64,000 bases of DNA from an uncultured Candidatus Saccharibacteria bacterium. Its GTDB lineage: Bacteria; Patescibacteriota; UBA1384; 2-12-FULL-50-11. The stretch spans positions 218,323-282,322 of the forward strand of contig CAZRED010000001.1 in NCBI GenBank assembly GCA_964599405.1. The letters are read 5' to 3'. Numbering within the stretch: position 1 is the first letter of the stretch; each line of letters begins with the position of its first letter. The position numbers and the translations under genes were made by a program. The notes under the pieces are model-generated. The model was not told where the DNA came from. It saw only the letters and a program-made list of their open reading frames with translations, and made no database searches. This document shows, one piece after another, positions 1-16,816 of the stretch.

Positions 1-300
1 TAAAGTCATATACCAACGCTCATCCAAATTAAACTCATTAGCCAGGCGAACAATATCGCCCACAAATTTTTTATTGGGTGGCAAAAGACGTAGGTCGACA
101 TGGAACTTGAGTAACAATTCTGGATCATAATCAGCAGATTTGCTAAGCGACTGGTACCACTCCGCTCTTTTCTCCCAGGGTATACCTGTCTCCGGAATTC
201 TATACTTTTTCCTAAATTTTGATGTAGCACGTTGAAACCGCTTATACGCGATGAGCATTTCCCCAAAATCCTCCCAATATCTACTAGCCGTTTGATCCAT
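1..300 (-). CDS. hypothetical protein (partial, runs off window start)
   Basis: Open minus-strand frame from ATG at 298-300 (MDQTASRYWEDFGEMLIAYKRF...) with no stop before position 1. It is not in the ORF track because it lacks a stop, and is in a different frame from the listed 6..266 ORF. No recognisable domain. Confidence 0.35.
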   Translation of the reverse strand, partial: MDQTASRYWEDFGEMLIAYKRFQRATSKFRKKYRIPETGIPWEKRAEWYQSLSKSADYDPELLLKFHVDLRLLPPNKKFVGDIVRLANEFNLDERWYMTL

Positions 301-398
301 TATCTTTAATAAACCCGATCTTATAATGATTTACCACGCACCTCCAGTATTAACCTGTTATTTGATAGATTTCTCGGTATACTGCGGTTGAGTAAATA

Positions 399-2909
399 AT
401 GCCAATACAAAAGACATTTGATCGTTCAAAGAACTTTCTAGCACAGTTAATTTTTGCTCTTACATCAAAGCTCTTACTTAGGAACCGAGGGCTTTGGGGT
501 CTTGATGCAAAACGGCCCAAGCACCAAATCCTGGCCTTAAAAGTTGTTGGTCAAATATACCGCTATGGGAAGGTATCCGGGGAATACTTGAGGATTTGGT
601 TATTCACACTTCACGAAAAGGTCTCATCGAACTGGGGAATCTTTAAAGAGCTTTTATATCACTCTAGATCCTTCATCGTATTCACTTTAATAGTAGTCAC
701 CGCATCTCTTCTGCCACTGAAAGGTTGGGGATTCTTACTAACTCGTGATGTAATAATAGGCAGCTCTACCGCCTATGCGGCAGGTGCAACCGCCTTACTT
801 GGAATAGTATTTGCCCTCTATGCAGTTGGCTTTCAGGTAACTACGGCAAAGTTTTCTTCAAAAGTTACTGATTATTTAAACAGGGAGAGGGTGGGTCAAT
901 TCTTTTTCGCCCTACTAACGCTGACGGTTATTTTTTCCCTTGCCACCTTATTACTTCAGCAGGGAACGGAGGAAAAATTAGTAACAGCCTTTATTGTTAA
1001 TTCGTTTTTCATGTTTATTAGCCTAGCCGGACTCCTAATATTCAAAGATGACTACATAACTAAGCTGAAACCAAGACAGACTTTTGAACGGTTATATAAT
1101 CAAATTCTGAAGTCCATCAGGCAGGTCAATAAGTACGACTACCCTGAATTTGACTCTTTCAAAATCACCCGAGCTCAAAACGCAAAGTCTGGCCGCGTTT
1201 ACCCCTCCATTCACAGTAGTTGGTCAATTGTAACGAACCTCCAGCGTCAGGTAAGGGATCGTCTTAGTATTATCGAAGTATTTTATGATGAACTCATCAA
1301 AGATGATAAGCCCCAGGACGCAATGTATGGACTGTCGCTACTGGGACAGCTGCTCGCCGAATACACATCTGTTAAACATTTTATCGATAAGGACTTTGGT
1401 TGGTGGTTTCCCGACAAGCAAGAAATTGTCAAGGCAGACAACAGCACAACATTCGCTATAAAAGCTAATTACGAATCTAAAGGAATTGGTAGACTTGCCG
1501 TAACAAAAAAAGATTTTGATTGGGTTGAAGATACAATTATTGCATTCTTCACTCGCGTTCAAAAAAACACTGACTTTCAGAGAAATCCCGAATTAGGCCA
1601 AGCCTTAATTTTTGCGTACGAAATAGCTATCTCTGGTGACTTTTCGAAAACTAATAAGGGTCTCGAAAAGCTATTACGAGGGTGTTTTGAAAATCAATAC
1701 AACGAAATTGCTAGTAAAATATTCGCGCTTTTCGTTGATTTAGGAGAGAAGGTTTGTTCTGTAGAAGGCTGCAGGACTAATTACCTAAACGCTATGGGAA
1801 CGATAAAAACTATTATCGCAGACGGATTTTCTTTAAGAAGCTTTCCTGGCCATTTAGAGCACTGGTCAACAGACTTAGAGGCAAGAATTAAAGAGGTTAT
1901 CTCAGGCGTACCCCTAGTTTCACAGCAACGCATGATCTCTTGGAAAATGCCAAAGGAATTCTTTTCCAGCCTAACGCTACTTCGAAAAAGACTGCAAACA
2001 GAGTACGAGATCGAGGGAAGGATGGTAAGTCCTCCGGTGTGGCTAACAAAGGATGTAATGGACGAGCTCCGTCGTACAGAAAACGAGATCTCCCTAAAAC
2101 ATCAAGACGAGGTAGTTGAGGCAGTGATACGATTATCAAAATTCTGTGGCTTCTATCGTGATCACTTCGTCATGGTTATCTTAGACATGTTTAACCAACT
2201 TATTTATGCTGACAACTGGGCTGCCATTGATCGCCTGCTGACAAAGTTCGACAAGCAACTACTTACAGTTTTGCTTTCTATCCCCAAAGATCAATTTATT
2301 GAGAATGGACTTAGAGAGCAAATTGAGTTCGGAGTGTTTAATTCATTAATAGTCCGCAAAAAGGCCCCCTTCTTGTTTTACCTTAAGCTATTTTACCTAT
2401 CTCAAATTCGGCTATCAGCAGACATCACAACTCGATCACTCACCGATCAATTCAAAACGTTAAGAAGACCAATTATGCTGGGGAGCCTAGCTTATCTCGT
2501 CTCAGAGTTGGATCAAGATTTTAGCTATGTAACCTCTTTCACGGTAATGATGGAGAAGCTTTATCCCCGTGTGAGCATTGCCGATTTATATTCGCAAGTA
2601 ATCGATTATAGGAGCTTATTAGGCAGTGTGGGTATATTTGAGGTCAGCACTGAAGAGTTCGCTCGCTACAGAATTTACTATCGACAAGTAATTAACCCTA
2701 TTACGGACTTACCTCGCAGGTCTGAAACGTCTGGCTCTATACCGTACGGATTTCACACTAGCGAAATGGCTGACCACCCCAGCAGCTTTGTACGAGATAT
2801 TTCTCAACACGAATTCTCTGACATGGAAGAATGCCACGAGGGTTATGTTGGTTGGTTAAAAAAACGTGAGTTAATGAAAAAATTTATAACCCTATTAAGT
2901 AATGCCTAG
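399..2909 (+). CDS. large hypothetical membrane-anchored protein (about 4 predicted TM helices in residues 90-210, about 600-aa soluble C-terminal region)
   Basis: 836-aa ORF. Hydrophobic segments FIVFTLIVVTASLLPL, STAYAAGATALLGIVFALYAVGF, FFFALLTLTVIFSLATLLL, AFIVNSFFMFISLAGLLIF. AT-rich codon usage distinct from core genes. No family recognised by eye. Confidence 0.6.
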   Translation: MPIQKTFDRSKNFLAQLIFALTSKLLLRNRGLWGLDAKRPKHQILALKVVGQIYRYGKVSGEYLRIWLFTLHEKVSSNWGIFKELLYHSRSFIVFTLIVVTASLLPLKGWGFLLTRDVIIGSSTAYAAGATALLGIVFALYAVGFQVTTAKFSSKVTDYLNRERVGQFFFALLTLTVIFSLATLLLQQGTEEKLVTAFIVNSFFMFISLAGLLIFKDDYITKLKPRQTFERLYNQILKSIRQVNKYDYPEFDSFKITRAQNAKSGRVYPSIHSSWSIVTNLQRQVRDRLSIIEVFYDELIKDDKPQDAMYGLSLLGQLLAEYTSVKHFIDKDFGWWFPDKQEIVKADNSTTFAIKANYESKGIGRLAVTKKDFDWVEDTIIAFFTRVQKNTDFQRNPELGQALIFAYEIAISGDFSKTNKGLEKLLRGCFENQYNEIASKIFALFVDLGEKVCSVEGCRTNYLNAMGTIKTIIADGFSLRSFPGHLEHWSTDLEARIKEVISGVPLVSQQRMISWKMPKEFFSSLTLLRKRLQTEYEIEGRMVSPPVWLTKDVMDELRRTENEISLKHQDEVVEAVIRLSKFCGFYRDHFVMVILDMFNQLIYADNWAAIDRLLTKFDKQLLTVLLSIPKDQFIENGLREQIEFGVFNSLIVRKKAPFLFYLKLFYLSQIRLSADITTRSLTDQFKTLRRPIMLGSLAYLVSELDQDFSYVTSFTVMMEKLYPRVSIADLYSQVIDYRSLLGSVGIFEVSTEEFARYRIYYRQVINPITDLPRRSETSGSIPYGFHTSEMADHPSSFVRDISQHEFSDMEECHEGYVGWLKKRELMKKFITLLSNA

Positions 2910-3990
2910 AAATAGCGAACAATTCCATGGCACGCATTTTAGCGACCCCTTTAAAGAACTGCTAAACGGACACGCCCAGCGAGTATCTACTACGAAAGAT
3001 GCTATGCAGCTATTTCATGAGGTGCATAATTATCGTCAAAACTTATTTCCTCCACGCTCCGTCCCTGTTTCAGGGAGGCCGGGAAGTTCTACCCTAGACA
3101 GCAACTTTTTTAGAGTTTCAGTAGCTGGAAGCCCCGCCTTAAGTAGGGATCTGAACGGTCATTTTACTGACACTAGAGGGTACCCAGCACATGGGGTGTC
3201 ATATGATGGAGCTCACGACCTATCTGAGTTTTTTGAAAACTCTTTATACCACCTATTAATCGACGGCATTGCTACCTATGTGATCGACTGGGAGCGAATA
3301 AAAGTCGCTAATCGTTATTATACGATTCCCGTGGGCCTTCGCTATATAAATCCCTCAACCATAACTATCCCGAAAAACGGAGTTGTTAAACAAAAGTTCA
3401 GCTGGATTGCCAAAGAGGTAAATAACCATTTTGAGTATCAAGATTCTCGCTTCTCCATAAAAGATTTAGTTATTTTCAAGCACCCTATTTATCCATTTTC
3501 TCCAGTAGGAAGGTCTCTTCGCTTATTAAAACAACTCAACCAGTGGAGTATTTTTTCGTTGCAGCAAGGGCAGGCAAATGTTGAGCCCGAGAATCATTCT
3601 ATCGAGCTAGAAAGAACTCGCTACAAACTAGCCGAACCTTATCGCAATAGGGAAGCAATAGCTCGCGCTAAAGTACGAAGGATCTTCAATCAAATAATAA
3701 GCGATACGGGGGTTGAGGCAACCCCTTATTACGAAGTGCTTGCATTCGCTCAATACAAAATGCGATTAAACGAATTCCGAGACTATTTTATGAAACAATT
3801 TTCCGAACAAATACTCAAACAGATTCAAGAAAGGAACGGGTTAAAGAATCCCCCGCAGATTGAGTACCGAGGGTTTGCAAAGAATGACGACATACTTTCT
3901 TCTCTTAAGGAATTTGAGGAAAGAAAAGTTAACGTTGAGGAGTTTCTGAAGAAAGTTAAGGATGATTTCGACCGAGATCTTTACCAATAG
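2902..3990 (+). CDS. hypothetical protein, translationally coupled to upstream gene
   Basis: 362-aa ORF whose start ATGCCTAG overlaps the upstream stop by 8 nt. No TM segments and no recognisable motif. Confidence 0.55.
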   Translation: MPRNSEQFHGTHFSDPFKELLNGHAQRVSTTKDAMQLFHEVHNYRQNLFPPRSVPVSGRPGSSTLDSNFFRVSVAGSPALSRDLNGHFTDTRGYPAHGVSYDGAHDLSEFFENSLYHLLIDGIATYVIDWERIKVANRYYTIPVGLRYINPSTITIPKNGVVKQKFSWIAKEVNNHFEYQDSRFSIKDLVIFKHPIYPFSPVGRSLRLLKQLNQWSIFSLQQGQANVEPENHSIELERTRYKLAEPYRNREAIARAKVRRIFNQIISDTGVEATPYYEVLAFAQYKMRLNEFRDYFMKQFSEQILKQIQERNGLKNPPQIEYRGFAKNDDILSSLKEFEERKVNVEEFLKKVKDDFDRDLYQ

Positions 3991-4005
3991 AAAGGACTTC
4001 AGTAA

Positions 4006-5172
4006 GTGAGACACCGAAAAGATCGTGAGTACTACGAGAATTTCTACGACAAGCTAACCGTTCATTTTGCTCGGAACGATATGGATTCCTTTTTCAGGCT
4101 CCGCGACGAGCTGAAAAAGAAGCTGCCGAAAAAAGAGTTTGAAGCACAAAGCACGCTGTTCTGGCTCGATAAGCTTTGCGACATGCTGGTTATGTGGCCA
4201 TGTGGTGAGCGCTGGGAAAAACGGGGCAGAGAGATCGACAGCATGATGCTAGCCGACGGAAATAAAGACCGCCAACTGGAAAACGCCCGGCTTCGACAGG
4301 AACCTGTTTGCAAACACTGCGGCAAGATTGGTTTACGTATCACCAGTAAGTATTTGATGCATCGAAACGGCTACTCACAAGACGTGCCAGAAGAAGTTTT
4401 GTTCATGCTCGACTGCCCAGCTTGCGAAAAACGAAGCAGTTACTGGGAAAGCGGCGAGTCATTTGAGAGACAGTCGACCCTCTGTCCAAAATGCCAAAGC
4501 GAGATGAAAGAACGCGACAGTCGCAAAGGCAAGATAATCACTACAACCTACACCTGCTCCAAATGCAAACATTCGTATAAAACGGCGCTCGATCTTCGTT
4601 CAAAGCCAGAAGAACCGGATCCGGATTTCGAGAAGCATAAAGCGATTTTCTGTTTTGATAATAAAACCGGTTTGGAGTATTTGCAGCGGCGCAACAACTG
4701 GAAAGCGTTTCAAGAGATGATGGATAGGGAAAAAGAGAAGGAGCAAAACGAGGCGCTGTACGGCTTAGTCGCGAAGATCAAGCGATTAAAAATTGCCGAA
4801 CTGATTGAGCTAATGGAAAAAGAGCTCAAGAAAGTCGAGTTTATTGAGGTTCGCTTTGAGAAGCCGGAGATTGGCAAAGACGTCATCGTTTCGTTTAGCT
4901 GCTTAGACGGAGATTCCAAACGCAGCGCTTATGACAGCGAAAAAATCCTAAAACGAACCGTTAAGAAAACATTACACCCAACCAACTGGCGACTGATGAC
5001 CGAAGGTGTCAGTTACCGTCTTGGCTACTTAACCGGCCGAGTCCGAGCCTACGAAAACGAAGAAGATTTGGTAAGGCTGATCGAAAAAGATCAGCCAGAG
5101 CTCAAGCGGGAGAAAACGGCGAATGATCCTGATCAACTTTTAGACAAAGACGGAAACATTATTACTTTGTAA
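4006..5172 (+). CDS. hypothetical zinc-ribbon protein (four CxxC pairs)
   Basis: 388-aa ORF with CKHCGK...CPACEK and CPKCQS...CSKCKH, i.e. two predicted zinc ribbons, and a charged coiled-coil-like C-terminal half. Its 3' end overlaps the convergent DGR RT gene by 11 nt. Confidence 0.6.
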   Translation: MRHRKDREYYENFYDKLTVHFARNDMDSFFRLRDELKKKLPKKEFEAQSTLFWLDKLCDMLVMWPCGERWEKRGREIDSMMLADGNKDRQLENARLRQEPVCKHCGKIGLRITSKYLMHRNGYSQDVPEEVLFMLDCPACEKRSSYWESGESFERQSTLCPKCQSEMKERDSRKGKIITTTYTCSKCKHSYKTALDLRSKPEEPDPDFEKHKAIFCFDNKTGLEYLQRRNNWKAFQEMMDREKEKEQNEALYGLVAKIKRLKIAELIELMEKELKKVEFIEVRFEKPEIGKDVIVSFSCLDGDSKRSAYDSEKILKRTVKKTLHPTNWRLMTEGVSYRLGYLTGRVRAYENEEDLVRLIEKDQPELKREKTANDPDQLLDKDGNIITL

Positions 5173-6184
5173 GCGAGGCGGTGATCCGAGACTGAATTTT
5201 CTTTTTGAGCTTGTGGGTATCGGCGTGCTGTAAGACGCCGTGATACGACGCCAGCGACTGGCTAAGGTCGTATGTGGTGATCGACTTATCTTTGTATTCA
5301 CTTAGCCGCTGGTCAATCTTCTTGATGACTCGTTGTTTCGTTTTAGTTCGCAACTGCTTGCGGTACGGCAAGATAACGTAGCCTAAAAAGTCAGCGCCCT
5401 GCCGATATTTTCTGATCGATACTTTGTTTGGGTGTAACTCGAGCGATAGCTCCTTGGTTAAAAATGCCCTAACCGGCTCCAAGAGATTTATTAAATAGTC
5501 TTCACTCTCGGCGATAACGACAAAGTCGTCGGTGTAGCGAGCGTAATATTTTACGCCCAAAGTTTGTTTCACAAATTGATCAAACTCGTTCATGTATATG
5601 TTAGCAAAGAGCTGGCTGGTTAAGTTACCGATCGGCATACCGTCCGGAAAACTCCCGATGATTCGCTCCAGAAGCCAGAGGGCGTCCTCGTCTTTAATCC
5701 GTTTAGCGAAAGTTCGAATGATTAGCTCGTGGTCAACACTTCGAAAGAACTTTTTGATGTCACATTTGAGAACAAAACAGGGTCTGGTGTAATTATGACT
5801 AACCTGTCGGATCATTTTATCGACCGCCAAAACTCCTCGGTGAGTACCTTTGCCGACTCGGCAGGAGAATGACGTTGAAATAAACCCGGATTCGAAAATT
5901 GGATTGAGGATATTAAATAGGGCTTGGTGGACGACTCGATCACGCACCTCGGCCTTACTGATAAGCCGCTGTTTCGGGTCTTGGATGTAAAAGGTGTGAT
6001 ATTTGCCGTGCTTATACCGACGGCTTTTTAAGTCTCGGTGAAGCTGAAAAAGGTTTGGTTCGAGCAACCACTCAAACTTCTGAACATCTTTACGGCTCCG
6101 CTTACCTTTACGGAATTTTTCCCACGCCAAAAAGAGGTTTTCGACCGAAATGATTGCTTCGAACAGATTTTCGTATATTTTCAT
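5162..6184 (-). CDS. diversity-generating retroelement (DGR) reverse transcriptase
   Basis: 340 aa. N-terminus MKIYENLFEAIISVENLFLAWEKFRKGKR is typical of DGR RTs. Motif IGNLTSQ (the DGR-specific I/LGxxxSQ replacing group-II QG). Catalytic YTDD box (ARYTDDFVV). RDRVVHQAL motif. Confidence 0.9.
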   Translation of the reverse strand: MKIYENLFEAIISVENLFLAWEKFRKGKRSRKDVQKFEWLLEPNLFQLHRDLKSRRYKHGKYHTFYIQDPKQRLISKAEVRDRVVHQALFNILNPIFESGFISTSFSCRVGKGTHRGVLAVDKMIRQVSHNYTRPCFVLKCDIKKFFRSVDHELIIRTFAKRIKDEDALWLLERIIGSFPDGMPIGNLTSQLFANIYMNEFDQFVKQTLGVKYYARYTDDFVVIAESEDYLINLLEPVRAFLTKELSLELHPNKVSIRKYRQGADFLGYVILPYRKQLRTKTKQRVIKKIDQRLSEYKDKSITTYDLSQSLASYHGVLQHADTHKLKKKIQSRITASLTK

Positions 6185-6658
6185 ATGATGGAGACACTTG
6201 GTTTACCGATCTTTCAAAAGTCGTACGATCTTTATAAATCCTTCTACGGCTGTCGTGACCACGTCGCCAAACAAGACCGGCATACCGTTTGGCAGCGCTG
6301 CGAAAACCTAGTTCTCGATCTACTCCAGTCGATTATTCAGGCTAGCCAGCAAGATAAGGCGGATAAGCTGATAACACTCGAGAAAGCGAGCGTCCAGCTC
6401 AACATGCTTCGCATTTTATTACGGCTCACTAAAGACCTGAAAGTCATCGATCCCAAGAAATACCTAATGCTCGAGGAGCAAATCGACGAGGTTGGTCGAA
6501 TGTTGGGCGGTTGGCTCAGATCGACTAAGATCCCCCCCCCCCCGACTATTTGGGTTCGGACGCGCGTTAGTATGCTGTCTAAACTAAGATTGAGAGATAG
6601 TGCCGAGAGGCCGACAACCCCAAGTTGGAGTTGCGGTTACCATCCGAGTTCCTGTTGA
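6185..6658 (+). CDS. avd: DGR accessory variability determinant (Avd); true C-terminus probably near 6531-6590, the ORF reads through a C12 tract into the TR
   Basis: MMETLGLP... The C-terminal helix ...LEEQIDEVGRMLGGWLRS closely mirrors the Bordetella phage BPP-1 bAvd ...IAEVGRILGSWIAR, with four-helix-bundle family spacing. The start ATG at 6185 abuts the RT start codon (complement of 6182-6184). The part of the listed ORF before 6185 lies inside the RT gene and is discounted. Confidence 0.75.
   Translation: MMETLGLPIFQKSYDLYKSFYGCRDHVAKQDRHTVWQRCENLVLDLLQSIIQASQQDKADKLITLEKASVQLNMLRILLRLTKDLKVIDPKKYLMLEEQIDEVGRMLGGWLRSTKIPPPPTIWVRTRVSMLSKLRLRDSAERPTTPSWSCGYHPSSC
6532..6543. repeat. C12 homopolymer (G12 on the minus strand) at the avd 3' end, 59 bp from the TR
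   Basis: Twelve consecutive C read directly from the sequence. A tract of plus or minus 1 would end the Avd frame at about 6571 or 6590 instead of 6658. Confidence 0.9.
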
Positions 6659-6716
6659 CGTTGAACCCATTGGCATTGAAGTTGCCAACGTTGACGCGGT
6701 TGCCATTCGAATCGAT
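6603..6716 (-). repeat. DGR template repeat (TR), sense on the minus strand
   Basis: 114-bp near-identical copy of 7154..7267. All 17 mismatches are T in this copy on the plus strand (A on the minus strand) versus A/C/G in the other copy. It is AAC-codon rich on the minus strand and has a GC-rich 3' end (GGGGTTGTCGGCCTCTCGG, IMH-like). Confidence 0.9.
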
Positions 6717-6994
6717 ATTTGCCCATTTTCTTCTGGTTTCACCGAAAGTTGAGCCTTACCGTCGGATTCTATCTTGAACCCTGCGGCTAAAGAATTATCG
6801 AATCGACCTATTTACTCTTCTTTCTGAATTTTATTTGGGAGCAGCGTAGAAGCATCTCCACCAAAAATGAGCAAGAACTTTCTCTCAAATCTTTCTCGCA
6901 CGCTGCCGCAACCGGTGGCTGCTGACATTCTGGCGAACTGAAGAATGAGTGCCCCGCGAGACCCAACCATGGCCGGATCTACACTAGCAAGACG

Positions 6995-7010
6995 CCTGCA
7001 TTATACCTGT
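6995..7010 (-). promoter_or_regulatory. candidate promoter -10 (CAGGTATAAT on the minus strand) positioned to drive a TR-containing transcript
   Basis: The minus strand reads CCTAACAGGTATAATGC. It shares CAGGTATAAT with the target-gene promoter element at 8110-8119. The -35 is weak. Confidence 0.3.
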
Positions 7011-7074
7011 TAGGATGTCAGCCGTACAGGGTTAAACAACGAAAAATGTGGCGAGCGCTTCGCGCTCTTAGTAT

Positions 7075-7102
7075 AAAAAAGCCCCGGCGGAAAACCGCCG
7101 GG
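7075..7102 (-). terminator. rho-independent terminator downstream of the DGR target gene
   Basis: Stem CCCGGCGG / loop AAAA / CCGCCGGG, followed on the minus strand by a T6 tract. Confidence 0.7.
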
Positions 7103-7144
7103 AGTTCAAGGGGGACAAAAGGCTCAAGAGCCAATGTCCAAAGT

Positions 7145-8002
7145 TCAGAAGTTCCGAGAGGCCGACAACCCCAAGTAGGAGTAGCGGAAACCATCCGAGT
7201 ACCCGCGGACGCCGAACCCATAGGCATCGAAGCAGCCAACGTAGACGCGGTTGCCATCCGAAACGATGTCGGAGCAGCGAACGTAGACGTTCTCGAACAG
7301 GCGCTCTCCCGTATTCAGGAAGTGTCCCATGACCGTGTACGTCATAACGCAAGCTGTCGGAGTCGTCTCGTCCTTCAGGAGGGCTTGCTGCTCGTCCCAA
7401 GACTTGCTGGTCGAGTTATCGACCGGCTGCTTGCGGATGAGGTACCAGCGGACTTCGACTTTGGTCTTCTTGGCGAAGGCTTGAGTCTCATACCACCCGC
7501 CGGTCGGCGTGTAGAAGAGCTTGCCCTTCTTGGCTCGGCCAGCCTTGGTCCGAACTTGCAGGAGCGTCATCGGATAGCCGGCAACGAGCACGTGTGTGTC
7601 TTTGCAAGCTTCGAGAACTTCCTTAGTGAACGGAACCGTAGCGAGAGCGTCGAGCTGATCCTGGGTCCACTTAGCACCGAGGTGCTTCGCGGCTTCTTCG
7701 AGACCGAAGAAGTTCGTTCCCATGATCGTCTTGGCTTCGTTCTGGCTGTCGGTCAGCTCGATGGCGGCAACAGGCGGAGCCTGCTGGCCGGCCTTCTTCA
7801 AGGCCTTACGAGCAATCCGATCCATCTCGTTAGCGAGCTGGTCATAGCCCAGAAAGGCTTGAAAGCCCGGGCCGTCCAAACCGTTACGGTGGACAAAATC
7901 GCGCATGACCTGGTCGCACTTGTGAAACTGGTCGTCAGTGACTGGAGTAGATGGAGGGGTCTGTGTTTGTGGCATCAGGCGTCTCCTCGTGTTTATGCCC
8001 AC
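7145..8002 (-). CDS. DGR target protein with C-terminal CLec/FGE-like variable region; no signal peptide evident
   Basis: 285-aa ORF containing the VR. The C-terminal GFRYSY/ VRGYSDG pattern resembles C-type-lectin-fold DGR targets. The opposite-strand 354-aa ORF (7046..8110) is R/L/A/G-rich antisense. Confidence 0.8.
   Translation of the reverse strand: MGINTRRRLMPQTQTPPSTPVTDDQFHKCDQVMRDFVHRNGLDGPGFQAFLGYDQLANEMDRIARKALKKAGQQAPPVAAIELTDSQNEAKTIMGTNFFGLEEAAKHLGAKWTQDQLDALATVPFTKEVLEACKDTHVLVAGYPMTLLQVRTKAGRAKKGKLFYTPTGGWYETQAFAKKTKVEVRWYLIRKQPVDNSTSKSWDEQQALLKDETTPTACVMTYTVMGHFLNTGERLFENVYVRCSDIVSDGNRVYVGCFDAYGFGVRGYSDGFRYSYLGLSASRNF
7154..7267 (-). repeat. DGR variable repeat (VR) in the 3' end of the target gene
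   Basis: Counterpart of the TR. It encodes the last ~40 aa of the target protein (...VYVRCSDIVSDGNRVYVGCFDAYGFGVRGYSDGFRYSYLGLSASR). Differences from the TR occur exclusively at TR adenines. Confidence 0.9.
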
Positions 8003-8094
8003 GGGGCAGATTGTCTCCTCTCGGTTGAGATGAGCTGCTCAGAAACTGCTTATTTCCAAGAAGCTCATCTCAAACTTCTTACTGTTAATGTTCG

Positions 8095-8130
8095 TCGGAA
8101 GTATACCTGATTATACCTGAAAAGTCAAGG
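8095..8130 (-). promoter_or_regulatory. sigma70-like promoter of the DGR target gene (-35 TTGACT, 17-bp spacer, -10 TATACT) carrying the shared CCCTTGACTTTTCAGGT motif
   Basis: The minus strand reads CCCTTGACTTTTCAGGTATAATCAGGTATACT. The same extended motif occurs at 35675-35712 and 36293-36330. Confidence 0.55.
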
Positions 8131-8189
8131 GATTAGAGGACGATTTCGGCTATAAAAGTGTGAAGTGTTACGTGACACCTTACGGTTTC

Positions 8190-8317
8190 GTATCGTAACT
8201 TTTTAGCTGCTCGATTTCTTCTTTGGTTTTGGCTTCGTAGCTACATTGGGAGCAACGGTAAAAGTCATCGATTTTAATCATTGACCCCTTACACCGAGGG
8301 CATTTTTTGTAATGCAT
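8190..8317 (-). CDS. small zinc-ribbon protein (42 aa, CPRC...CSQC), candidate
   Basis: Translated by eye: MHYKKCPRCKGSMIKIDDFYRCSQCSYEAKTKEEIEQLKSYDTKP. It is below the ORF-track size cutoff. Confidence 0.3.
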
Positions 8318-8373
8318 GATTTCTGATTATCTCGGGAACAGGTACAAAGTCAATTATAGTTATCTACTAACTG

Positions 8374-8946
8374 ATGAGTTATGATCACCTCATGAAAAGC
8401 GAGCTACTAATCTTGGCTGAATTTCCCGAGGAAATTTGTTGGCTCGGTAATGAAATACTCCGCCAAAAAGCAGAGTCCCTCACTCAGAATGAAATAAAAG
8501 AGGGGAAAGCTGCAGAAATTACCAAAAGGCTAGAGATAACCCTTAAAAAGATTCAAAAACTTGGCAAGGGTGTTGCCATCGCTGCACCACAAATAGGAAT
8601 CTCTAAAGCAATAATCATTATTTACCTAGAAGATCGGTATATTCCTTTTATAAATCCTGTGATTACCACTGCTTCAGAAAACAAGAACTCTTTTCCCGAA
8701 GGCTGTTTGAGTAGTTTACCGTTAGTGGCTGAAACCATCCGACCGGCAGAAATTGACGTGAAATATTTAGACGCTGAAGGAAAAGAACATTTGGAACATT
8801 TTGATGGCAAGATGGCACGAATGCTCCAACACGAGGTTGATCATCTCAACGGCATTCTGTTTATTGACCGAGCGAACTTAAAGACAGGCCGTTTCATAGC
8901 CGACTGGGATGAGTACAAAGAAACAGCTCAGCTAACTGAAATATAA
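8374..8946 (+). CDS. def: peptide deformylase
   Basis: Motifs GVAIAAPQIG, EGCLS and HEVDHLNG (HExxH). Confidence 0.85.
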   Translation: MSYDHLMKSELLILAEFPEEICWLGNEILRQKAESLTQNEIKEGKAAEITKRLEITLKKIQKLGKGVAIAAPQIGISKAIIIIYLEDRYIPFINPVITTASENKNSFPEGCLSSLPLVAETIRPAEIDVKYLDAEGKEHLEHFDGKMARMLQHEVDHLNGILFIDRANLKTGRFIADWDEYKETAQLTEI

Positions 8947-8996
8947 ACCCCAATGGCTAATTCGACAATTCCAGGTTCGAAAGTACAATTCAAGAA

Positions 8997-9530
8997 ATGA
9001 AGACTCTGCCACGCGAAGAAGCCTCAATGCTTTTTGACGAGTGGTGGAATGATTTTGATAAAGAGTGGTTTAAAATCGAGGTTTTGCAAGACTACTCGGG
9101 TGAAGATAACGGACCTTCACTACAAGCTTGGTTAGAAGGCAAAAAGCAAAAAAGCATTGAGCTAATGAAAGCTACTATGAATATGGAATGGATTGAGAGT
9201 TGCCAAGCCAAAGTTGGACAAGGAGCGAAACTACTTCGTATCCGCCTCATAGGAAATCCTCTCACTCCGTACTCAGAGTGGGAAATGGAACACTATAAAC
9301 ACGTTAATATTCCTCTTTGTGGCGAGGAGGTTTTGCTGATTAATAAAACCGACGCCAATGACCTCTCCCTACCCACTGGAGATGTAATGATTTTTGATGG
9401 GAAGAGGGTTATTAAAAATACTTATACGCCAAATGGCTATATGACAGAGCAAACATTCTATGAGGATGAGGACGTTTCGACCTTTTTAAACCTGAGGGGC
9501 GAGCTACTTAAACGAGCAGTCCCGATCTAA
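8997..9530 (+). CDS. hypothetical protein
   Basis: 177-aa ORF with no recognised motif. Confidence 0.45.
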   Translation: MKTLPREEASMLFDEWWNDFDKEWFKIEVLQDYSGEDNGPSLQAWLEGKKQKSIELMKATMNMEWIESCQAKVGQGAKLLRIRLIGNPLTPYSEWEMEHYKHVNIPLCGEEVLLINKTDANDLSLPTGDVMIFDGKRVIKNTYTPNGYMTEQTFYEDEDVSTFLNLRGELLKRAVPI

Positions 9531-9535
9531 TAGCC

Positions 9536-10138
9536 TTACGTCTTTATCAGTGTGAAAGCGGAAACCAAGAAAAGGATCCCTATAATTATCCTGGCCAAGG
9601 GTTGGGCTAAGACTTTCTCTATTATCATTACTTTTTGGGATGCTTGGGCGATAAAAATAAACCAAAGAGCTGTGAACAGTCCCATCTCTAACGCAACGGC
9701 GAGCTGGAATGATAGATCTACGCCGTTGCTTCCCAGCTGACTAATGACCGCGATATAGAAGAAGACCATTTCAATATTTACAGTGTGGTTGATAAATCCG
9801 GCCAGCAAAGGGCTTATTGTCTGCGTTTTATTCCCGCCTGATTTTGCTACGTGAGGAAAGAAGCAAATAACCGCTTGCCAGATGAGCCAAGCTGCACCGA
9901 GGTACCGAATGACTTTTGCGGCGGAAGGAAAGTAGTCAAAAAAGACGCTTAGCCCAAAGATAGCAAGAATAACGACCAACAAACTTCCCAAGCCAAGGCC
10001 AATAGCAACTAGGCTGCCGTTACGAGAGCCTTCCTGAGACGAGTGCCTCAGAACCAGAAACCAGTCAGATCCCGGAAAGACAATCATCCCTGCCTGGAGC
10101 AGAACAACCGCAATTATTTGTTGCAGTGAATTTTCCAT
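9536..10138 (-). CDS. LysE/RhtB-family amino-acid exporter
   Basis: About 6 TM segments in 200 aa. N-terminal VFPGSDWFLVL resembles the LysE-type translocator PGP motif. Confidence 0.7.
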   Translation of the reverse strand: MENSLQQIIAVVLLQAGMIVFPGSDWFLVLRHSSQEGSRNGSLVAIGLGLGSLLVVILAIFGLSVFFDYFPSAAKVIRYLGAAWLIWQAVICFFPHVAKSGGNKTQTISPLLAGFINHTVNIEMVFFYIAVISQLGSNGVDLSFQLAVALEMGLFTALWFIFIAQASQKVMIIEKVLAQPLARIIIGILFLVSAFTLIKT

Positions 10139-10248
10139 ACTTACTCCATATCGTACTCGTTATTTGATATCGGAGTAGGCCGGAAAACGAGACAAAATGC
10201 AACTTCTTTTTTATAGTGTCTCAAATGTCTCATTTACCCTGATGGGAA

Positions 10249-10270
10249 GTTCTAGACCGGAATGTCCCGC
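10249..10270 (+). repeat. 22-bp direct repeat, copy 1 (GTTCTAGACCGGAATGTCCCGC)
   Basis: Perfect identity with 10719..10740. Lies 43 bp upstream of the peptidase gene start. Confidence 0.9.
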
Positions 10271-10313
10271 CAGTCTTGATAATAAAAATATAAATTCTAC
10301 AATTCGGGGATCC

Positions 10314-10718
10314 ATGGAAAGTGTCACTCAACAAGATAATTATGGTTGTGGGGTAGCTTGTGTCGCCTATATTAGTAAAAGGACTTATCGAGCAACGTTA
10401 AAAACATTAGACGCTAAAGCGGCTAAGACTCGGGGGTTTGCTTGCAAGGATTTGGTTATCGGCTTAAATACCATAGGCCATTCTTATACTTATAGTTACC
10501 TCCCAGGAAAGTTAAAACGAAAAATTTATGCTGATGGTGTTATCGTGTTTATTAAAAGGTCTGAACATTACCCGGCCGGACATTACTTAGTTCGAAGCCA
10601 AAATAAGTGGATGGACCCTTGGCTTAATTTTAAGAAGGATCGAAATATTAAAAAAGCTGAGTCTGGCTATCGAGCTAGGTTACCCGGCAAACCAGTTTAT
10701 GCCTTATTCCCAAATTAG
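10314..10718 (+). CDS. papain-like cysteine peptidase, C39-like domain protein
   Basis: QQDNYGCGVACVAYI matches the C39-family Q...CG(V/P)AC catalytic-Cys motif. The start is taken at the internal ATG with a GGGGA RBS. The track ORF from 10197 would include repeat copy 1. Confidence 0.5.
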   Translation: MESVTQQDNYGCGVACVAYISKRTYRATLKTLDAKAAKTRGFACKDLVIGLNTIGHSYTYSYLPGKLKRKIYADGVIVFIKRSEHYPAGHYLVRSQNKWMDPWLNFKKDRNIKKAESGYRARLPGKPVYALFPN

Positions 10719-10740
10719 GTTCTAGACCGGAATGTCCCGC
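10719..10740 (+). repeat. 22-bp direct repeat, copy 2
   Basis: Begins immediately after the TAG stop of the peptidase gene. Confidence 0.9.
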
Positions 10741-10803
10741 ATTGTTTGCTTCTAATAAATTCTCTATGTATATTCCGGTGAGACACACAGGAGGAATTCG
10801 TCT

Positions 10804-11136
10804 ATGAACCTTATATTTCGAATCAACACTACTGCCGATGACGCGGGTGAAATGCTTGGGTTGGTCAATAAGCTCGAATGGAGGTTAGAAGTCCTCAATC
10901 TTGGAGTGACCATCAAAAAGACCATGGTTTCGTCTCGGAAGAAACGTAACGAACCGCACACTCTAACAGTTGGCGAAAGGGCCGTTCGGGGTGTTGAGCA
11001 AATTGAGGCACTTCTTAGTGATATGCGCCTTAATCCTTACTGGCTTACCGCTGAACAGGCTTCTGTAGAAGTGCGTAAATGGCCGACATGGAAACGTGGT
11101 GACTACTCACATCTCAAGCTTCCCGAAGCAACATAG
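10804..11136 (+). CDS. hypothetical protein
   Basis: 110-aa ORF with an AGGAGG RBS 7 nt upstream. Confidence 0.45.
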   Translation: MNLIFRINTTADDAGEMLGLVNKLEWRLEVLNLGVTIKKTMVSSRKKRNEPHTLTVGERAVRGVEQIEALLSDMRLNPYWLTAEQASVEVRKWPTWKRGDYSHLKLPEAT

Positions 11137-11219
11137 TCCGGAGCCCGAAACGATCTCAACCCGTCCTTCTGGACGGGTTATCCCTTTATTTACGGACAAT
11201 CCTAGTTCATAATCGAACT

Positions 11220-13427: not shown

Positions 13428-14426
13428 ATGAAGCGGGTTCTGCTCTGGGCACTGGTAGGGTTAGCTGTCATCGCCATTATCGCGACCGTTGCGCTCGTTA
13501 GTAGGAACGATGATAACGAGCCAACTGATAGTAGCGATAAACAGTCTGAACGGTTGGTTGGTGTCAGTTTGTCGCCGAGAAGCTTCGGGGCAAAGGATTA
13601 TTTGGCATTTTTCGACAAAGCCGCCGAAGCTGGCAACGCCTTAAGCTGGGCCGGTCCGTACAGTGATTTGGCAAAAACTACGAATAATCCCGCCGAGACA
13701 GTCCTTGAGCAAAGTAAAAATTCTGGGTCCACCCCCGTTATTATCACTGGGCCAGGTAAAGGAGAGGTTTTTGACGGCATTTTTCGACAAGGGTTTAGTA
13801 GCGCAGTGTTGGAATTTGTGAAAGCCAACGAGGTGCCGTACTTGGGAATTGGTAACGAAATTGACGAGCTTTATCTGGACTCGCCGGCCAAATACGATGC
13901 ATTCATCGCCCTGGCTAACGATTTGGCAAGCCAAGTAAAAATAGCCTCCCCAGAAACGAAGGTGATTACTATTTTCCAGCTGGAACGGATGAAGGGGCTA
14001 AATGGCGGACTGTTTGGTGGCGTTAACAACACCGATAAAAACACAATGGCACTGCTCGACGGCCTGAAAAGCTTTGATATGGTTGCTTTCACTACTTACC
14101 CCTGTTTGATTTATAAATCCCCGGCCGAAATCCCTGAAGAATACTATTCGGATATCGCCAACCACACCGATTTGCCGGTAATTTTCACGGAGGTTGGTTG
14201 GTTTCGGGAAACACCGGTGGCTGGTTGGGAAAGCAGCGAGCAAGAGCAGGCCGACTTTATTTCCCGGTTTGAAGATTTAACCACCCGTCTCAATCCCCAA
14301 CTACTGCTCTGGCCGTTTCTTTTCGACCAAGATATCCCCGAGCCTTTCAAACAAATTGGGCTACTCGGCGTTGAGCAACAGACATCTCTTGGCTATGAAG
14401 CCTGGAAAAGCTACCCGAAACAGTAA
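13428..14426 (+). CDS. membrane-anchored glycoside hydrolase, clan GH-A TIM-barrel type
   Basis: GIGNEID (NE acid/base) and FTEVGW (nucleophile E) motifs. N-terminal signal/TM. Confidence 0.55.
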   Translation: MKRVLLWALVGLAVIAIIATVALVSRNDDNEPTDSSDKQSERLVGVSLSPRSFGAKDYLAFFDKAAEAGNALSWAGPYSDLAKTTNNPAETVLEQSKNSGSTPVIITGPGKGEVFDGIFRQGFSSAVLEFVKANEVPYLGIGNEIDELYLDSPAKYDAFIALANDLASQVKIASPETKVITIFQLERMKGLNGGLFGGVNNTDKNTMALLDGLKSFDMVAFTTYPCLIYKSPAEIPEEYYSDIANHTDLPVIFTEVGWFRETPVAGWESSEQEQADFISRFEDLTTRLNPQLLLWPFLFDQDIPEPFKQIGLLGVEQQTSLGYEAWKSYPKQ

Positions 14427-14427
14427 A

Positions 14428-16776
14428 TTATTTGTCAATCACGTGGCTAAGCAGGAGTTTCCGTTCAACGGAAGCAATTAGTCTGCGAGTGGAGACAGCC
14501 ACATCAGGAGCCACTGATACGGAAGTGGCGCCGGCTTTAACCATTGCTTCGGTAATTTCCGGGTAAACGCTGGGCGCTTGGCCGCAGATTGAGCAGGTAA
14601 CGTGGTGTTTGCGACAAGTCCTGACGACGTGAAGAATTGAGTTCAAAACGGCCGGGTAGCGTTCATCAAACTCACTGGCTAACTTCGCCGAGTCGCGGTC
14701 AATACCTAAGATTAGTTGCGTTAAATCGTTCGAGCCAATTGATACGCCGTCAATTCCTTCGTCAATATAGCGCTCCAGCTCCAACACCGTTGATGGCACT
14801 TCTACCATTATCCAGAGCTTGAAATCCGGCCCTTGGCGCAAACTGTTGTGGTGCATTAAATCACGGACTTTCAAAAACTCTTCAACAGTGCGGACAAAGG
14901 GAATCATTACGTGTAAATTTTTCAAATCCATCCCATCGCGAACGGCTTTGATGGCTTCAATTTCCAGGGCAAATTCATCCGGCTCGGCGATGTAGCGCGA
15001 GGCACCGCGGTAGCCAATCATCGGGTTGTTTTCTGGTTCTTCAAACTCTTTGCCGCCTTTGAGCGAGCGGTATTCGTTGGTTTTAAAATCCGTAAACCGG
15101 TAAACCACTGGGCGGGGGCTGAAGGCTTGAGCAATTGTACCGATCCCCTGGGAAAGCTTTTGAACGTACTCTTTTTCCCGGCCAGCTTTAATCATCGCCC
15201 GGGGATGCTCGCCGATATCGGCCACAATAAACTCGGCTCGCAGTAGCCCAACTCCGTCCACCGGCAACTGGGCATATTCGTCGGCCTTCGACGGCTCGGC
15301 TAGGTTTAAGTAGACCTTAGTGGCGGTGACTGGTACCGTCGTGTCCACGCCGTTGGTGGTGGTGGTTTTTAGGTGATGGCCAGGCGGCTCGGTATGAGCC
15401 GGCACGCCGACTTTGCCCTTGTAAACTTTGCCGGAGGCGCCATCAACGGTAACCACTTGGCCGGTTTTTAGCACGTGCGTTGCCGTGCCAGTGCCAACTA
15501 CGCAAGGGATGCCTAGTTCGCGTGACACGATGGCAGCGTGGCTAGTTCGGCCGCCGGTGTCGGTAACGATCGCTGCTGCTCGACGCATAGCTGGGACGTA
15601 GTCGGGGCTAGTCATCTCCGTTACTAACACATCCCCTTTCTCCACTTTGTCGATGTCTTTCGGATGATGAATTATTTTGACGGGACCAGAGGCCTTACCC
15701 ACGGAAGCGGCGGCACCAGAAACAATTACTTCGACTTTCGCTAAATCTGTCGCTTCTACTTTTTCCGCTCCTGTTGGCGAATCCTTAGCGGACTCCTCTT
15801 TTTTCATGGTTGTAACAGGGCGCGCTTGCACCATATAAAAACTACCGCCTTCCAATGCCCACTCGGTGTCTTGAGGTTTGCCGTAATGCTTCTCTACTTC
15901 CGCACCAAGTTTGGCTAAGGCGATAATTTGTTCGTCGGTTAGTTTTTGACCGGCTTTTTCTTTAGCAGTTAGCGCCACATGCTTGTTAGCGCCCTTCTCG
16001 TCACGGACAATCTGCCATTCTTGGGCACCGATTTCCTTGGAGGTAATCTCCATTTTTTTCTTGTCGATAATATAGTGGTCGGGAGTGACCGAGCCGGAAA
16101 CCACGGCTTCACCCAGTCCCAGCCCGGCGTCGATAACAATTTTCGACTCGTCAGAAGTGACTGGGTCAACGGTAAACATAATGCCGGCCACCTGGCTTTG
16201 AACCATCCGTTGGACTGGCACTGCGATGCCGACTTTAAGGTGGTCGAATTTGTTGACGGTCCGGTAATAAATCGCTCGCGCCTCAAATAGCGACGCCCAG
16301 CACTCCCGAACTGCTCGGATCAGCTTGTTCTTGCCCTCAATATTCAGAAACGTTGCCTGCTGACCTGCAAAAGACGCGTCCGGCAAATCTTCGGCGGTAG
16401 CACTGGAGCGGACCGCTACCGGCCCTTCACCAAGCTCCTTGTAGGCTTTTTCAATTTCGTCCACCAATTTCTTGGGAAGTTCTCGCTCTTTGATGGCCGC
16501 TTGAACATGTTCGGCAATATCGTTGAGTTTTTTGGAGTCTTCCGGGTCGAGATTTTTAGTTTCTTTAGCAATGAAGTGATCCAGACCGTTTTCGCGAACG
16601 AAAGTGGTGTAGGCGGCGGCCGTAATAATAAAGCCTGGCGGCACCGGCAACTTAGCTTTGGTCATTTCACCAAGATTGGCGCCCTTGCCGCCAACCAGTG
16701 GAATATCGTTTTTGCACACTTGCGCAAACCAGACTAAATCCGGTTCTTTTTTCCCTCCGAACATTACATACATCAT
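14428..16776 (-). CDS. ppsA: phosphoenolpyruvate synthase
   Basis: 782 aa. N-terminal ATP-grasp region ...LVGGKGANLGEM. Phospho-His mobile domain GGRTSHAAIVSRELGIPCVVG. C-terminal PEP-utilising TIM barrel. Confidence 0.85.
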   Translation of the reverse strand: MMYVMFGGKKEPDLVWFAQVCKNDIPLVGGKGANLGEMTKAKLPVPPGFIITAAAYTTFVRENGLDHFIAKETKNLDPEDSKKLNDIAEHVQAAIKERELPKKLVDEIEKAYKELGEGPVAVRSSATAEDLPDASFAGQQATFLNIEGKNKLIRAVRECWASLFEARAIYYRTVNKFDHLKVGIAVPVQRMVQSQVAGIMFTVDPVTSDESKIVIDAGLGLGEAVVSGSVTPDHYIIDKKKMEITSKEIGAQEWQIVRDEKGANKHVALTAKEKAGQKLTDEQIIALAKLGAEVEKHYGKPQDTEWALEGGSFYMVQARPVTTMKKEESAKDSPTGAEKVEATDLAKVEVIVSGAAASVGKASGPVKIIHHPKDIDKVEKGDVLVTEMTSPDYVPAMRRAAAIVTDTGGRTSHAAIVSRELGIPCVVGTGTATHVLKTGQVVTVDGASGKVYKGKVGVPAHTEPPGHHLKTTTTNGVDTTVPVTATKVYLNLAEPSKADEYAQLPVDGVGLLRAEFIVADIGEHPRAMIKAGREKEYVQKLSQGIGTIAQAFSPRPVVYRFTDFKTNEYRSLKGGKEFEEPENNPMIGYRGASRYIAEPDEFALEIEAIKAVRDGMDLKNLHVMIPFVRTVEEFLKVRDLMHHNSLRQGPDFKLWIMVEVPSTVLELERYIDEGIDGVSIGSNDLTQLILGIDRDSAKLASEFDERYPAVLNSILHVVRTCRKHHVTCSICGQAPSVYPEITEAMVKAGATSVSVAPDVAVSTRRLIASVERKLLLSHVIDK

Positions 16777-16816
16777 AACGCAGTAGTGCCAGGCCAGGAA
16801 GTTTTTCGCAGCGACC

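Follow-up and report, generated by a model that had tools for sequence, protein, structure and literature searches.

The window analysed here, a 64,000-nt stretch of DNA, carries three genes near its start, all on the plus strand. G1 (positions 399-2909) is an 836-aa ORF with an ATG start that encodes a predicted inner-membrane protein, G2 (2902-3990) is a 362-aa ORF, also with an ATG start, whose soluble product was modelled with a phage portal fold, and G3 (4006-5172) is a 388-aa ORF that starts with GTG. G1 and G2 share an 8-nt start/stop overlap on the plus strand at 2902-2909 (ATGCCTAG), and this overlap of start and stop codons indicates that the two genes are translationally coupled. 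The spacer between G2 and G3 (3991-4005, plus strand) is short, as the initial annotation of this DNA had proposed, but is 15 nt long rather than 16 bp, and it includes a Shine-Dalgarno-like AAAGGA 9 nt upstream of the G3 GTG. At its other end, G3 runs into the convergent RT gene of a DGR (5162-6184, minus strand), with 11 nt in common that include the G3 stop codon (5170-5172). The three ORFs and both overlaps lie exactly where they had been annotated. Full-length homologues of all three genes exist elsewhere, so these ORFs are more than chance, and G1-G2-G3 are probably co-transcribed in this window. A divergent ORF lies upstream (300 to <1, minus strand) and had no relative in any of the fetched loci.

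The GC contents of G1, G2 and G3 are 0.410, 0.419 and 0.465, respectively, against 0.519 ± 0.020 (minimum 0.475, measured in 2.5-kb windows) past 11.2 kb of the window. The AT-richness relative to the flanks that had been pointed out initially is therefore real, since all three genes fall below every 2.5-kb window of that region. They belong to a low-GC island covering approximately positions 1-11,200, to which the GC-rich DGR target gene is an exception, and they look horizontally acquired.

G1 and G2 form an obligate two-gene cassette

The initial annotation treated the three genes as a single unit and proposed a neighbourhood search for their linkage. This linkage is kept for G1 and G2 but is lacking for G3. 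G2 lies directly after G1 in all 13 distinct loci whose contig extends past G1, with the two genes either overlapping (by 4-17 nt) or separated by 1 nt, whereas G3 accompanies the pair in only four of 14 distinct loci and is absent from nine of the 13 G1 or G1-G2 loci outside the window. The pairwise identities of G1 track those of G2 (r=0.975 across 78 pairs, down to 28% identity), and both genes are full-length and intact in every locus, being conserved end to end at 28-89% identity with many invariant residues. The family is small, with ~24 G1 clusters and 8 G2 clusters. G1-G2 is an obligate two-gene cassette, self-contained and apparently carried as cargo among mobile elements and defence islands of candidate phyla radiation (CPR) bacteria.

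The settings of this cassette are diverse. It is found on elements that encode TerL, TerS and a ParB-methylase (L001, L008 and L102), on small serine-recombinase elements (L003, L005, L101 and L103) and on a Phage_CRI Rep/integrase element (L104). The genes of L102 all lie on a single strand, in the order G1, G2, a 251-aa ORF, ParB-MT, TerS and TerL. Type III Mod+Res genes adjoin the pair in L008 and L103, its neighbours in L089 are a SNF2-PLD helicase, an MmeI/Eco57I-type enzyme and a C5 methylase, and in L093 it sits between Ham1 and Fur/ZnuA in an apparently chromosomal location. No terminase is encoded within 10 kb of the pair at nine loci (L002, L003, L005, L089, L092, L093, L101, L103 and L104).

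G1 is a predicted membrane protein with a large helical domain

G1 consists of a basic helical N-terminal stretch (residues 1-88), four TM helices (89-217) and an all-helical C-terminal domain of ~620 aa. The four TM helices described initially are evident in the sequence as hydrophobic segments at 89-115, 124-150, 164-189 and 193-217. The C-terminal ~620 aa are modelled as an alpha-solenoid, which is predicted to be cytoplasmic because the positive-inside rule gives an N-in/C-in topology.

None of the three proteins had been matched to a recognised family, and PADLOC, NCBIfam and PHROGs likewise gave no assignment for G1, G2 or G3. The PADLOC (v2.0) comparison that had been suggested as a check on a defence role matched no defence model to any of them, with a chance-level RexB alignment (E=0.53, for G1) as the only hit. 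Pfam qualifies this picture through weak zinc ribbons in G3 and a partial DUF2254 (PF10011) match in G1 that had been missed, which scores 33.9 bits over a gathering score of 28.8 but is confined to the TM part of this family of predicted membrane proteins (positions 51-168 of the 368 in the profile). This match spans TM2-TM4 of G1 and the KDDYITKLKP segment that follows them; the soluble part of DUF2254 has no counterpart in G1, where the ~620-aa solenoid is found instead. A precomputed PF10011 match is present on roughly half of the G1 homologues. A literature search on DUF2254 function gave nothing relevant. G1 has no recognisable effector domain, and its model features no pore-like or ATPase domain.

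G2 has a predicted portal fold outside the portal sequence families

The predicted structure of G2 has the fold of a portal protomer, with clip, stem helices, wing and crown, a feature that had been overlooked earlier. Confidence in the model is moderate (pLDDT 67, from an alignment of 8 sequences), and segment 215-273, a candidate tunnel or interface region, is strongly conserved yet poorly modelled. By sequence, G2 is not a member of a portal family in Pfam or PHROG models. Pfam matched none of the 8 G2 family members, and the sole PHROG match of the family was between P0027 and phrog_12 (E=0.0018 over ~100 residues). A PDB profile search with G2 returned nothing at E<=10, tblastn against annotated phage genomes yielded chance matches only, and a search of the 2.9 million contigs of IMG/VR turned up no G1 or G2.

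G2 is also not located in a head-morphogenesis module (TerL, portal, protease/scaffold and major capsid protein). Pfam identified no capsid, protease or tail families in the 14 distinct G1-G2 neighbourhoods, and TerL occurs within 10 kb of the pair in only three of these (L001, L008 and L102). G2 differs from the portals of HK97, SPP1 (gp6), lambda (B), T4 (gp20), Mu and GTA in falling outside any portal sequence family, and from phage, prophage and GTA portals generally in that it lacks nearby capsid, protease, scaffold and tail genes, is found in defence islands and cargo slots, and has a large membrane protein as its obligate, coupled partner. Portal proteins are, to our knowledge, regarded as strictly virion components, and T4 gp20 is the one familiar case that we are aware of in which a portal has a membrane partner; T4 gp40 is a small chaperone. 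T4 builds its gp20 ring on the inner membrane together with gp40 and YidC, a process aided by a dedicated membrane-associated factor (PMC4493910). Nothing links gp40 to G1 (836 aa, four TM helices and a solenoid), however, and T4 has a full head module whereas the G1-G2 loci have none. A literature search for a portal-like component of defence systems gave nothing relevant.

G3 borders a recurrent cargo slot

G3 comprises a helical N-terminal region, two zinc ribbons, a helical linker and a conserved C-terminal domain. The zinc ribbons account for the four CxxC pairs of the initial annotation, which are located at 102, 137, 160 and 184 and whose cysteines show little or no variation among 66 homologues. 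The coiled-coil tail proposed for this protein did not hold up, as the helical stretch is not terminal and is followed by the conserved C-terminal domain, with its motif TNWRLMSDGxxYRLGxLxGR. Pfam detected weak zinc ribbons alone in the 66 members, and a PDB profile search produced only Rpb9/TFIIS-type zinc-ribbon noise. Longer homologues carry C-terminal extensions, among which there is one AAA_18 kinase-like fusion and otherwise no informative domain. In L001, G3 is shortened to 112 aa.

The G3 family has 574 cluster representatives at E<=1e-3, mostly full-length and of ~360 aa. Even with a cut-off as loose as E<10, full-sensitivity HMM searches of 80 metagenomic G3 loci detected neither G1 nor G2. 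G3 is a mobile-element gene in its own right, much more widely distributed than G1-G2 and not an obligate partner of the pair.

G3 is the downstream edge of a recurrent cargo slot in CPR mobile elements. The elements that bear this slot encode a terminase, ParB-methylase, serine recombinase or TraG, and its border opposite G3 is ParB-MT or TraG. Immediately upstream of G3 homologues, the slot holds a full-length Avs4 (L048, 2262 bits), GajA and GajB of Gabija (L088), PDC-S28 (L083), PDC-S46 (L011), an LmuB-like ATPase (L075), a type IIG RM system (L033), a type II methylase (L029) and a type I RM system (L015); type III RM is also among the systems listed for it. The slot of L081 is empty, with ParB-MT divergent from G3. 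Co-transcription of G3 with G1-G2 in the window would then arise only because G3 borders the slot. Judged by these slot occupants and by its own defence-gene neighbours, G1-G2 qualifies, on a locus-by-locus view, as defence-island or hotspot cargo in an operational sense.

Rousset et al. in 2022 reportedly described defence hotspots of P2/P4-type prophages and satellites that are flanked by conserved core genes. The G3 slot resembles these hotspots in its fixed position, conserved border gene and interchangeable defence systems, but belongs to another element family (CPR, with TerL/TerS/ParB-methylase/serine recombinase or TraG backbones) and has another flanking gene. As far as we found, neither this CPR element family nor G3 as its flanking gene has been described.

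G1-G2 as a candidate phage-interference module

Because the slot that it occupies here holds anti-phage systems elsewhere, G1-G2 is a credible candidate phage-interference module. We tentatively interpret it, at a little short of an even chance, as mobile cargo that interferes with phages by means of an exapted, membrane-coupled portal, with its function read from genomic context. Of the two roles suggested initially, defence is thus reasonable given the Avs4, Gabija and RM systems found in the slot elsewhere, while service as a DGR accessory is not. The low GC content of the pair (0.41 versus 0.52) was counted in favour of mobile cargo, and the argument for anti-phage activity is one of guilt by association. 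On the other side, TerS/TerL within 10 kb in L001, L008 and L102 would suit a packaging role equally well. It also counts against defence that no PADLOC model fits G1 or G2, that G1 features no recognisable effector domain and that the family is small.

As an exapted portal, G2 would oligomerise on the G1 solenoid at the cytoplasmic face of the membrane, and the resulting complex would interfere with infecting phages. This could proceed through portal mimicry, with capture or mis-nucleation of phage scaffold, capsid or terminase components, or the complex might instead engage phage DNA. G1 would serve as the anchor and possibly as a membrane effector, and the outcome could be abortive infection or exclusion.

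Two known systems have a comparable layout. Kiwa combines sensing of membrane stress by KwaA with binding of ejected phage DNA by KwaB (PMC11785009). Like G1-G2, Kiwa is a two-gene system found in defence islands, pairing a membrane component that has four TM helices with a soluble protein. The soluble protein acts at the membrane, as G2 would, and by functional analogy Kiwa illustrates how G1-G2 could work. G1-G2 is not a Kiwa system, as the PADLOC Kiwa models are unmatched by either protein and Pfam finds no DUF4868; KwaB is a DUF4868 protein whereas G2 is portal-like, and G1 has an additional 620-aa cytoplasmic solenoid. Lambda RexAB, like similar abortive-infection pairs based at the membrane, also joins a 4-TM membrane protein to a cytoplasmic partner on a mobile element, but the RexB match to G1 is at chance level and the sizes and folds are unrelated. 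The proposed mimicry would also differ from Avs4, which senses phage proteins by a receptor.

A bolder proposal, which we regard as possible but rather doubtful, is that an exapted portal held at the membrane by a 4-TM/solenoid partner represents a new class of anti-phage immunity. Such a system would mimic the head-assembly initiator and either trap or mis-nucleate scaffold, capsid and terminase or report them to a membrane effector, and the G3-bordered slot would be a general CPR defence hotspot. If the portal reading is true, G2 would be a clear example of a core viral structural protein that cells or mobile elements have exapted. If the pair does interfere with phage, it would do so by assembly-initiator mimicry at the membrane, which is absent from the described defence strategies that we found. 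Known defence systems are considered scarce in CPR/Patescibacteria. The G3-flanked slot, with its Avs4, Gabija, several RM types and PADLOC candidates, is a genomic handle for CPR immunity genes, helps to define a terminase-carrying, capsid-less element family in CPR, and could be mined for further systems. Since the basis of all these points is context and predicted structure, they are a lead and not a result.

Alternative explanations

The main rival to phage interference, which we consider unlikely, is that G2 is the working portal of a satellite-like element. Helper capsid proteins would then build proheads that only the TerS/TerL of the element fill; these elements have no capsid genes, so a helper phage would be needed. 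The predicted portal fold of G2, the presence of TerS and TerL on the same element in L001, L008 and L102, and the T4 precedent for membrane-initiated portal assembly (PMC4493910) all speak for this explanation. Most elements of this kind, however, have TerS/TerL without G1-G2 (for example L081, L048, L088, L025, L032 and L061), and most G1-G2 loci (nine) have no terminase within 10 kb. The pair also occurs between RM genes or housekeeping genes, and G1 and G2 were not found in IMG/VR. Moreover, we know of no portal that requires an 836-aa membrane partner.

It is improbable that G1-G2 is instead a membrane-anchored DNA conduit, in which a portal-like ring on a membrane protein would export or take up DNA for the element or its host. 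Portal rings are DNA channels, G1 would place the complex at the membrane, and the integrative elements that carry the pair have recombinases and no obvious transfer machinery. Against this, each G1 protomer provides only four TM helices, its model lacks a pore-like or ATPase domain, no translocase ATPase is a conserved neighbour of the pair, and we are aware of no precedent for a membrane-docked portal conduit. More improbable still is that the genes are what is left of a decaying prophage head module and have no present function. The portal fold in a mobile-element setting and the shortened G3 of L001 (112 aa) fit such decay, but G1 and G2 are full-length everywhere at 28-89% identity, with the overlap and invariant residues kept, and this full-length conservation disfavours a remnant because it reflects purifying selection on a working pair.

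The idea that G1, G2 and G3 serve the adjacent DGR as accessory genes hardly merits belief. In its favour are the convergent, 11-nt overlapping ends of G3 and RT and the shared low-GC island. The DGR is complete by itself, with target, VR (7150-7267), TR (6599-6716), Avd and RT, and VR differs from TR at TR adenines only. Although the initial annotation took the overlap as a sign that the two loci travel together, no relative of the window's RT or Avd is present at the 13 other distinct G1-G2 loci, and the overlap is therefore explained by local packing and not by linkage. In tblastn searches of L001-L094, Avd had no match and RT a single weak one, in L029, and the called genes of the later G1-G2 loci (L101-L104) include no RT family. 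As a general association, a DGR accessory role is refuted, as co-occurrence with RT, Avd or TR-VR is not conserved. The RT of L029, the sole match among the 80 G3 loci, is encoded next to a G3 homologue, but at 437 aa and 25% identity it is of another type. The near-identical contig of L030 carries a clustered partial RT ORF.

An obligate gene pair and its separable neighbour

Three co-directional ORFs lie on the plus strand of the window exactly where the initial annotation had placed them: G1 (399-2909, 836 aa), G2 (2902-3990, 362 aa) and G3 (4006-5172, 388 aa, GTG start). The window sequence bears out the claimed 8-nt start/stop overlap of G1 and G2 (ATGCCTAG) and the 11-nt overlap of G3 with the convergent reverse transcriptase (RT) gene of the adjoining diversity-generating retroelement (DGR), while the short G2-G3 gap is present but measures 15 nt, not 16 bp, and includes AAAGGA. 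The reported AT-richness also holds, with GC contents of 0.41-0.42 in G1 and G2 and 0.465 in G3; past 11.2 kb of the window, GC is 0.519 +/- 0.020.

G1 has 24 full-length homologues (38-73% identity) that are conserved end to end, and a distant second subfamily (~25-28% identity) was reached via related loci. At all 13 distinct loci where the contig runs beyond G1 (the window and the compared loci L001, L002, L003, L005, L008, L089, L092, L093 and L101-L104), a G2 homologue lies directly 3' of G1 with an overlap of 4-17 nt or a 1-nt gap, and G1 and G2 pairwise identities are correlated (r = 0.975, 78 pairs). Given this adjacency and correlation, the two genes form an obligate, co-evolving pair. 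The proposed three-gene operon does not stand: the unit is G1-G2 only, and G3 is present at four of 14 distinct loci (the 13 plus L006, whose contig stops within G1), namely the window, L008 with the gene order unchanged, L001 in a truncated form (112 aa) and L006, where it is divergent and upstream of G1. The G3 family is far larger: clustered at 50% identity, it has 574 representatives at E <= 1e-3, of which 190 reach E <= 1e-30. Relaxed full-sensitivity HMM searches for G1 and G2 at 80 metagenomic G3 loci found neither (0/80). The G1-G2 family is small and confined to metagenome-assembled genomes of candidate phyla radiation (CPR) type, with Levyibacteriota and Minisyncoccota as named sources.

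Predicted architecture of the proteins

G1 carries the four claimed transmembrane (TM) segments as hydrophobic helices within residues 89-217. TM2-TM4 match Pfam DUF2254 above the gathering score, covering a third of the profile, and this TM module is the sole part that DUF2254 and G1 have in common. An AlphaFold model (pLDDT 76, pTM 0.70) is helical throughout the other ~620 residues, and since the distribution of K/R in the loops, inspected in the sequence, predicts an N-in/C-in topology, this solenoid would be cytoplasmic.

No library searched yielded a family match for G2. A Foldseek search of its template-free AlphaFold model (eight sequences, pLDDT 67, pTM 0.67) against BFVD independently returned portal matches at probability 1.00, and one G2 homologue matched PHROG 12 ('portal protein') weakly. 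Based on these matches, we regard a portal fold as predicted for G2, and at the level of prediction it is established. G2 is a new member of this fold, a sequence orphan whose gene context is unprecedented. G3, in which the four expected CxxC pairs were found, begins with a helical region followed by two zinc ribbons, whose cysteines are invariant; a helical linker then leads to a C-terminal domain that is also conserved. Family and PDB profile searches returned nothing recognisable for G3 except zinc-ribbon noise.

Genomic settings and the G3-bordered slot

The pair is mobile across diverse backbones. At L001, L008 and L102 it sits on elements with a serine recombinase, TerL, TerS and a ParB-methylase, and a module of a ~255-aa protein, ParB-MT, TerS and TerL is homologous between L001 and L102, with its orientation relative to G1-G2 inverted. 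At L003, L005, L101 and L103 it is carried by small elements that have a serine recombinase and an XRE repressor, and at L104 by a Phage_CRI Rep/integrase element; at L093 the surroundings appear to be ordinary chromosome. Restriction-modification (RM) genes are abundant at L008 (type III Mod+Res directly upstream of G1-G2), L103 (Mod+Res divergent) and L089 (SNF2-PLD helicase and MmeI/Eco57I-type enzyme upstream, C5 methylase and HATPase downstream). Capsid, protease, scaffold and tail genes are absent from every G1-G2 neighbourhood, and neither protein was found in IMG/VR. We also observed that L001, the locus most closely related to that of the window, encodes a very large RHS/YD-repeat toxin-like protein a few genes downstream of G1-G2 (13881-18281, >2000 aa; CBM96, DUF6531, RHS_repeat and TEN_YD-shell domains).

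Gene maps of G3 loci revealed a recurrent plan, in which a conserved backbone (TerL<TerS<ParB-MT< or TraG<HTH<) lies on one side, G3> stands opposite, and a variable, mostly co-directional insert lies between them. We inspected this slot directly upstream of the G3 match in L009-L088 and L095-L100. It has no insert in L081 and elsewhere holds full-length Avs4 (L048, 4866-9620), GajA and GajB of Gabija (L088, 6380-9999), PDC-S28 (L083, 7562-9976), PDC-S46 (L011, 2574-4784), an LmuB-like ATPase (L075), a type IIG enzyme (L033, 5800-8922), a type II methylase accompanied by a partner gene (L029) or a type I RM system (L015, 3474-9449). G1-G2 fills the same slot, held elsewhere by defence systems, in the window, L001 and L008. 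The slot resembles a hotspot for defence genes in CPR mobile elements and could be mined for new defence systems.

One backbone belongs to a family of small integrative elements encoding a large serine recombinase, TerL, a TerS-like protein, a ParB-N-plus-N6/N4 methyltransferase fusion and often a LexA/S24-like repressor (L001, 654-7702; L008, 1-9940; L102, 4085-8064; L081, L025, L032, L061, L088 and L097). These elements look like phage satellites, because capsid, portal and tail genes are absent from the family. The second backbone, with a TraG/VirD4-like protein, has this G3-bordered slot too (L015, L029, L033 and L071).

Possible functions of G1-G2

G1-G2 fits no PADLOC model, and tests for membership of Kiwa and of RexAB were negative as well.

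We rate G1-G2 as mobile-element or defence-island cargo, apparently made from a viral structural fold. Slot context supports the initial annotation in part, as to a candidate defence module, but not as to a three-gene unit or a DGR accessory set. On evidence from gene context and structure prediction, we tentatively favour a phage-interference cassette, a reading with somewhat less than even chances. G2 would oligomerise in a portal-like manner on the G1 solenoid at the cytoplasmic face of the membrane, where it might mimic the head-assembly initiator and sequester scaffold, capsid or terminase, or might instead engage phage DNA; G1 would be the anchor and possibly also a membrane effector. 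Kiwa, a 4-TM sensor with a soluble DNA-binding partner (PMC11785009), offers a functional analogy in its 4-TM component and soluble partner, and portals can assemble at the inner membrane, as for T4 gp20 with gp40 and YidC (PMC4493910). If true, the mimicry mechanism would be categorically new.

The main rival, which we consider unlikely, is that G2 is a working portal with which a capsid-less, terminase-encoding element hijacks helper capsids. TerS and TerL do lie near G1-G2 at three loci, but most pairs have no terminase within 10 kb and most capsid-less, terminase-encoding elements lack the pair. A DNA conduit seems improbable, and a decaying remnant still more so. A DGR accessory set of G1, G2 and G3 is effectively refuted, as DGR RT or Avd occurs at no other G1-G2 locus (L001-L094, L101-L104). 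The locus merits follow-up chiefly for the putative exapted portal and for the G3-flanked defence slot of CPR mobile elements.

The adjoining DGR and low-GC island

The DGR itself is genuine: its RT (5162-6184, minus strand) matches RVT_1, and every mismatch between TR (6599-6716) and VR (7150-7267), both on the minus strand, falls at a TR adenine. The target gene (7145-8002, minus strand) is GC-rich (0.578) amid a low-GC island, and a terminator-like hairpin lies at 7103-7082 (minus strand). The layout (5162-8002) is unusual. A bAvd-like ORF (~6185-6658, plus strand; Pfam E = 1.8e-20) is opposite in strand to all other components; it sits back-to-back against the start codon of RT and reads on into TR. 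Separately, a 437-aa reverse transcriptase lies convergent and just downstream of a G3 homologue at L029 (7637-8458; also L030), echoing the G3/RT arrangement of the window at 25% identity to its DGR RT; no Avd was found near the L029 gene.

On the other side of G1, a divergent minus-strand ORF (MDQTASRYWEDFGEML...) starts at ~300 and extends beyond the window start (1-300); no relatives were found in any of the loci compared. Beyond the DGR (8001-11200) GC stays low (0.43); the right border of the low-GC island is near 11.2 kb and its left border outside the window start. Encoded in this stretch are what appears to be an additional peptide deformylase (8374-8946), a 200-aa membrane protein, a 173-aa protein and a 177-aa protein (8997-9530) whose homologue in L033, ~7 kb downstream of G3, shares 49% identity with it.
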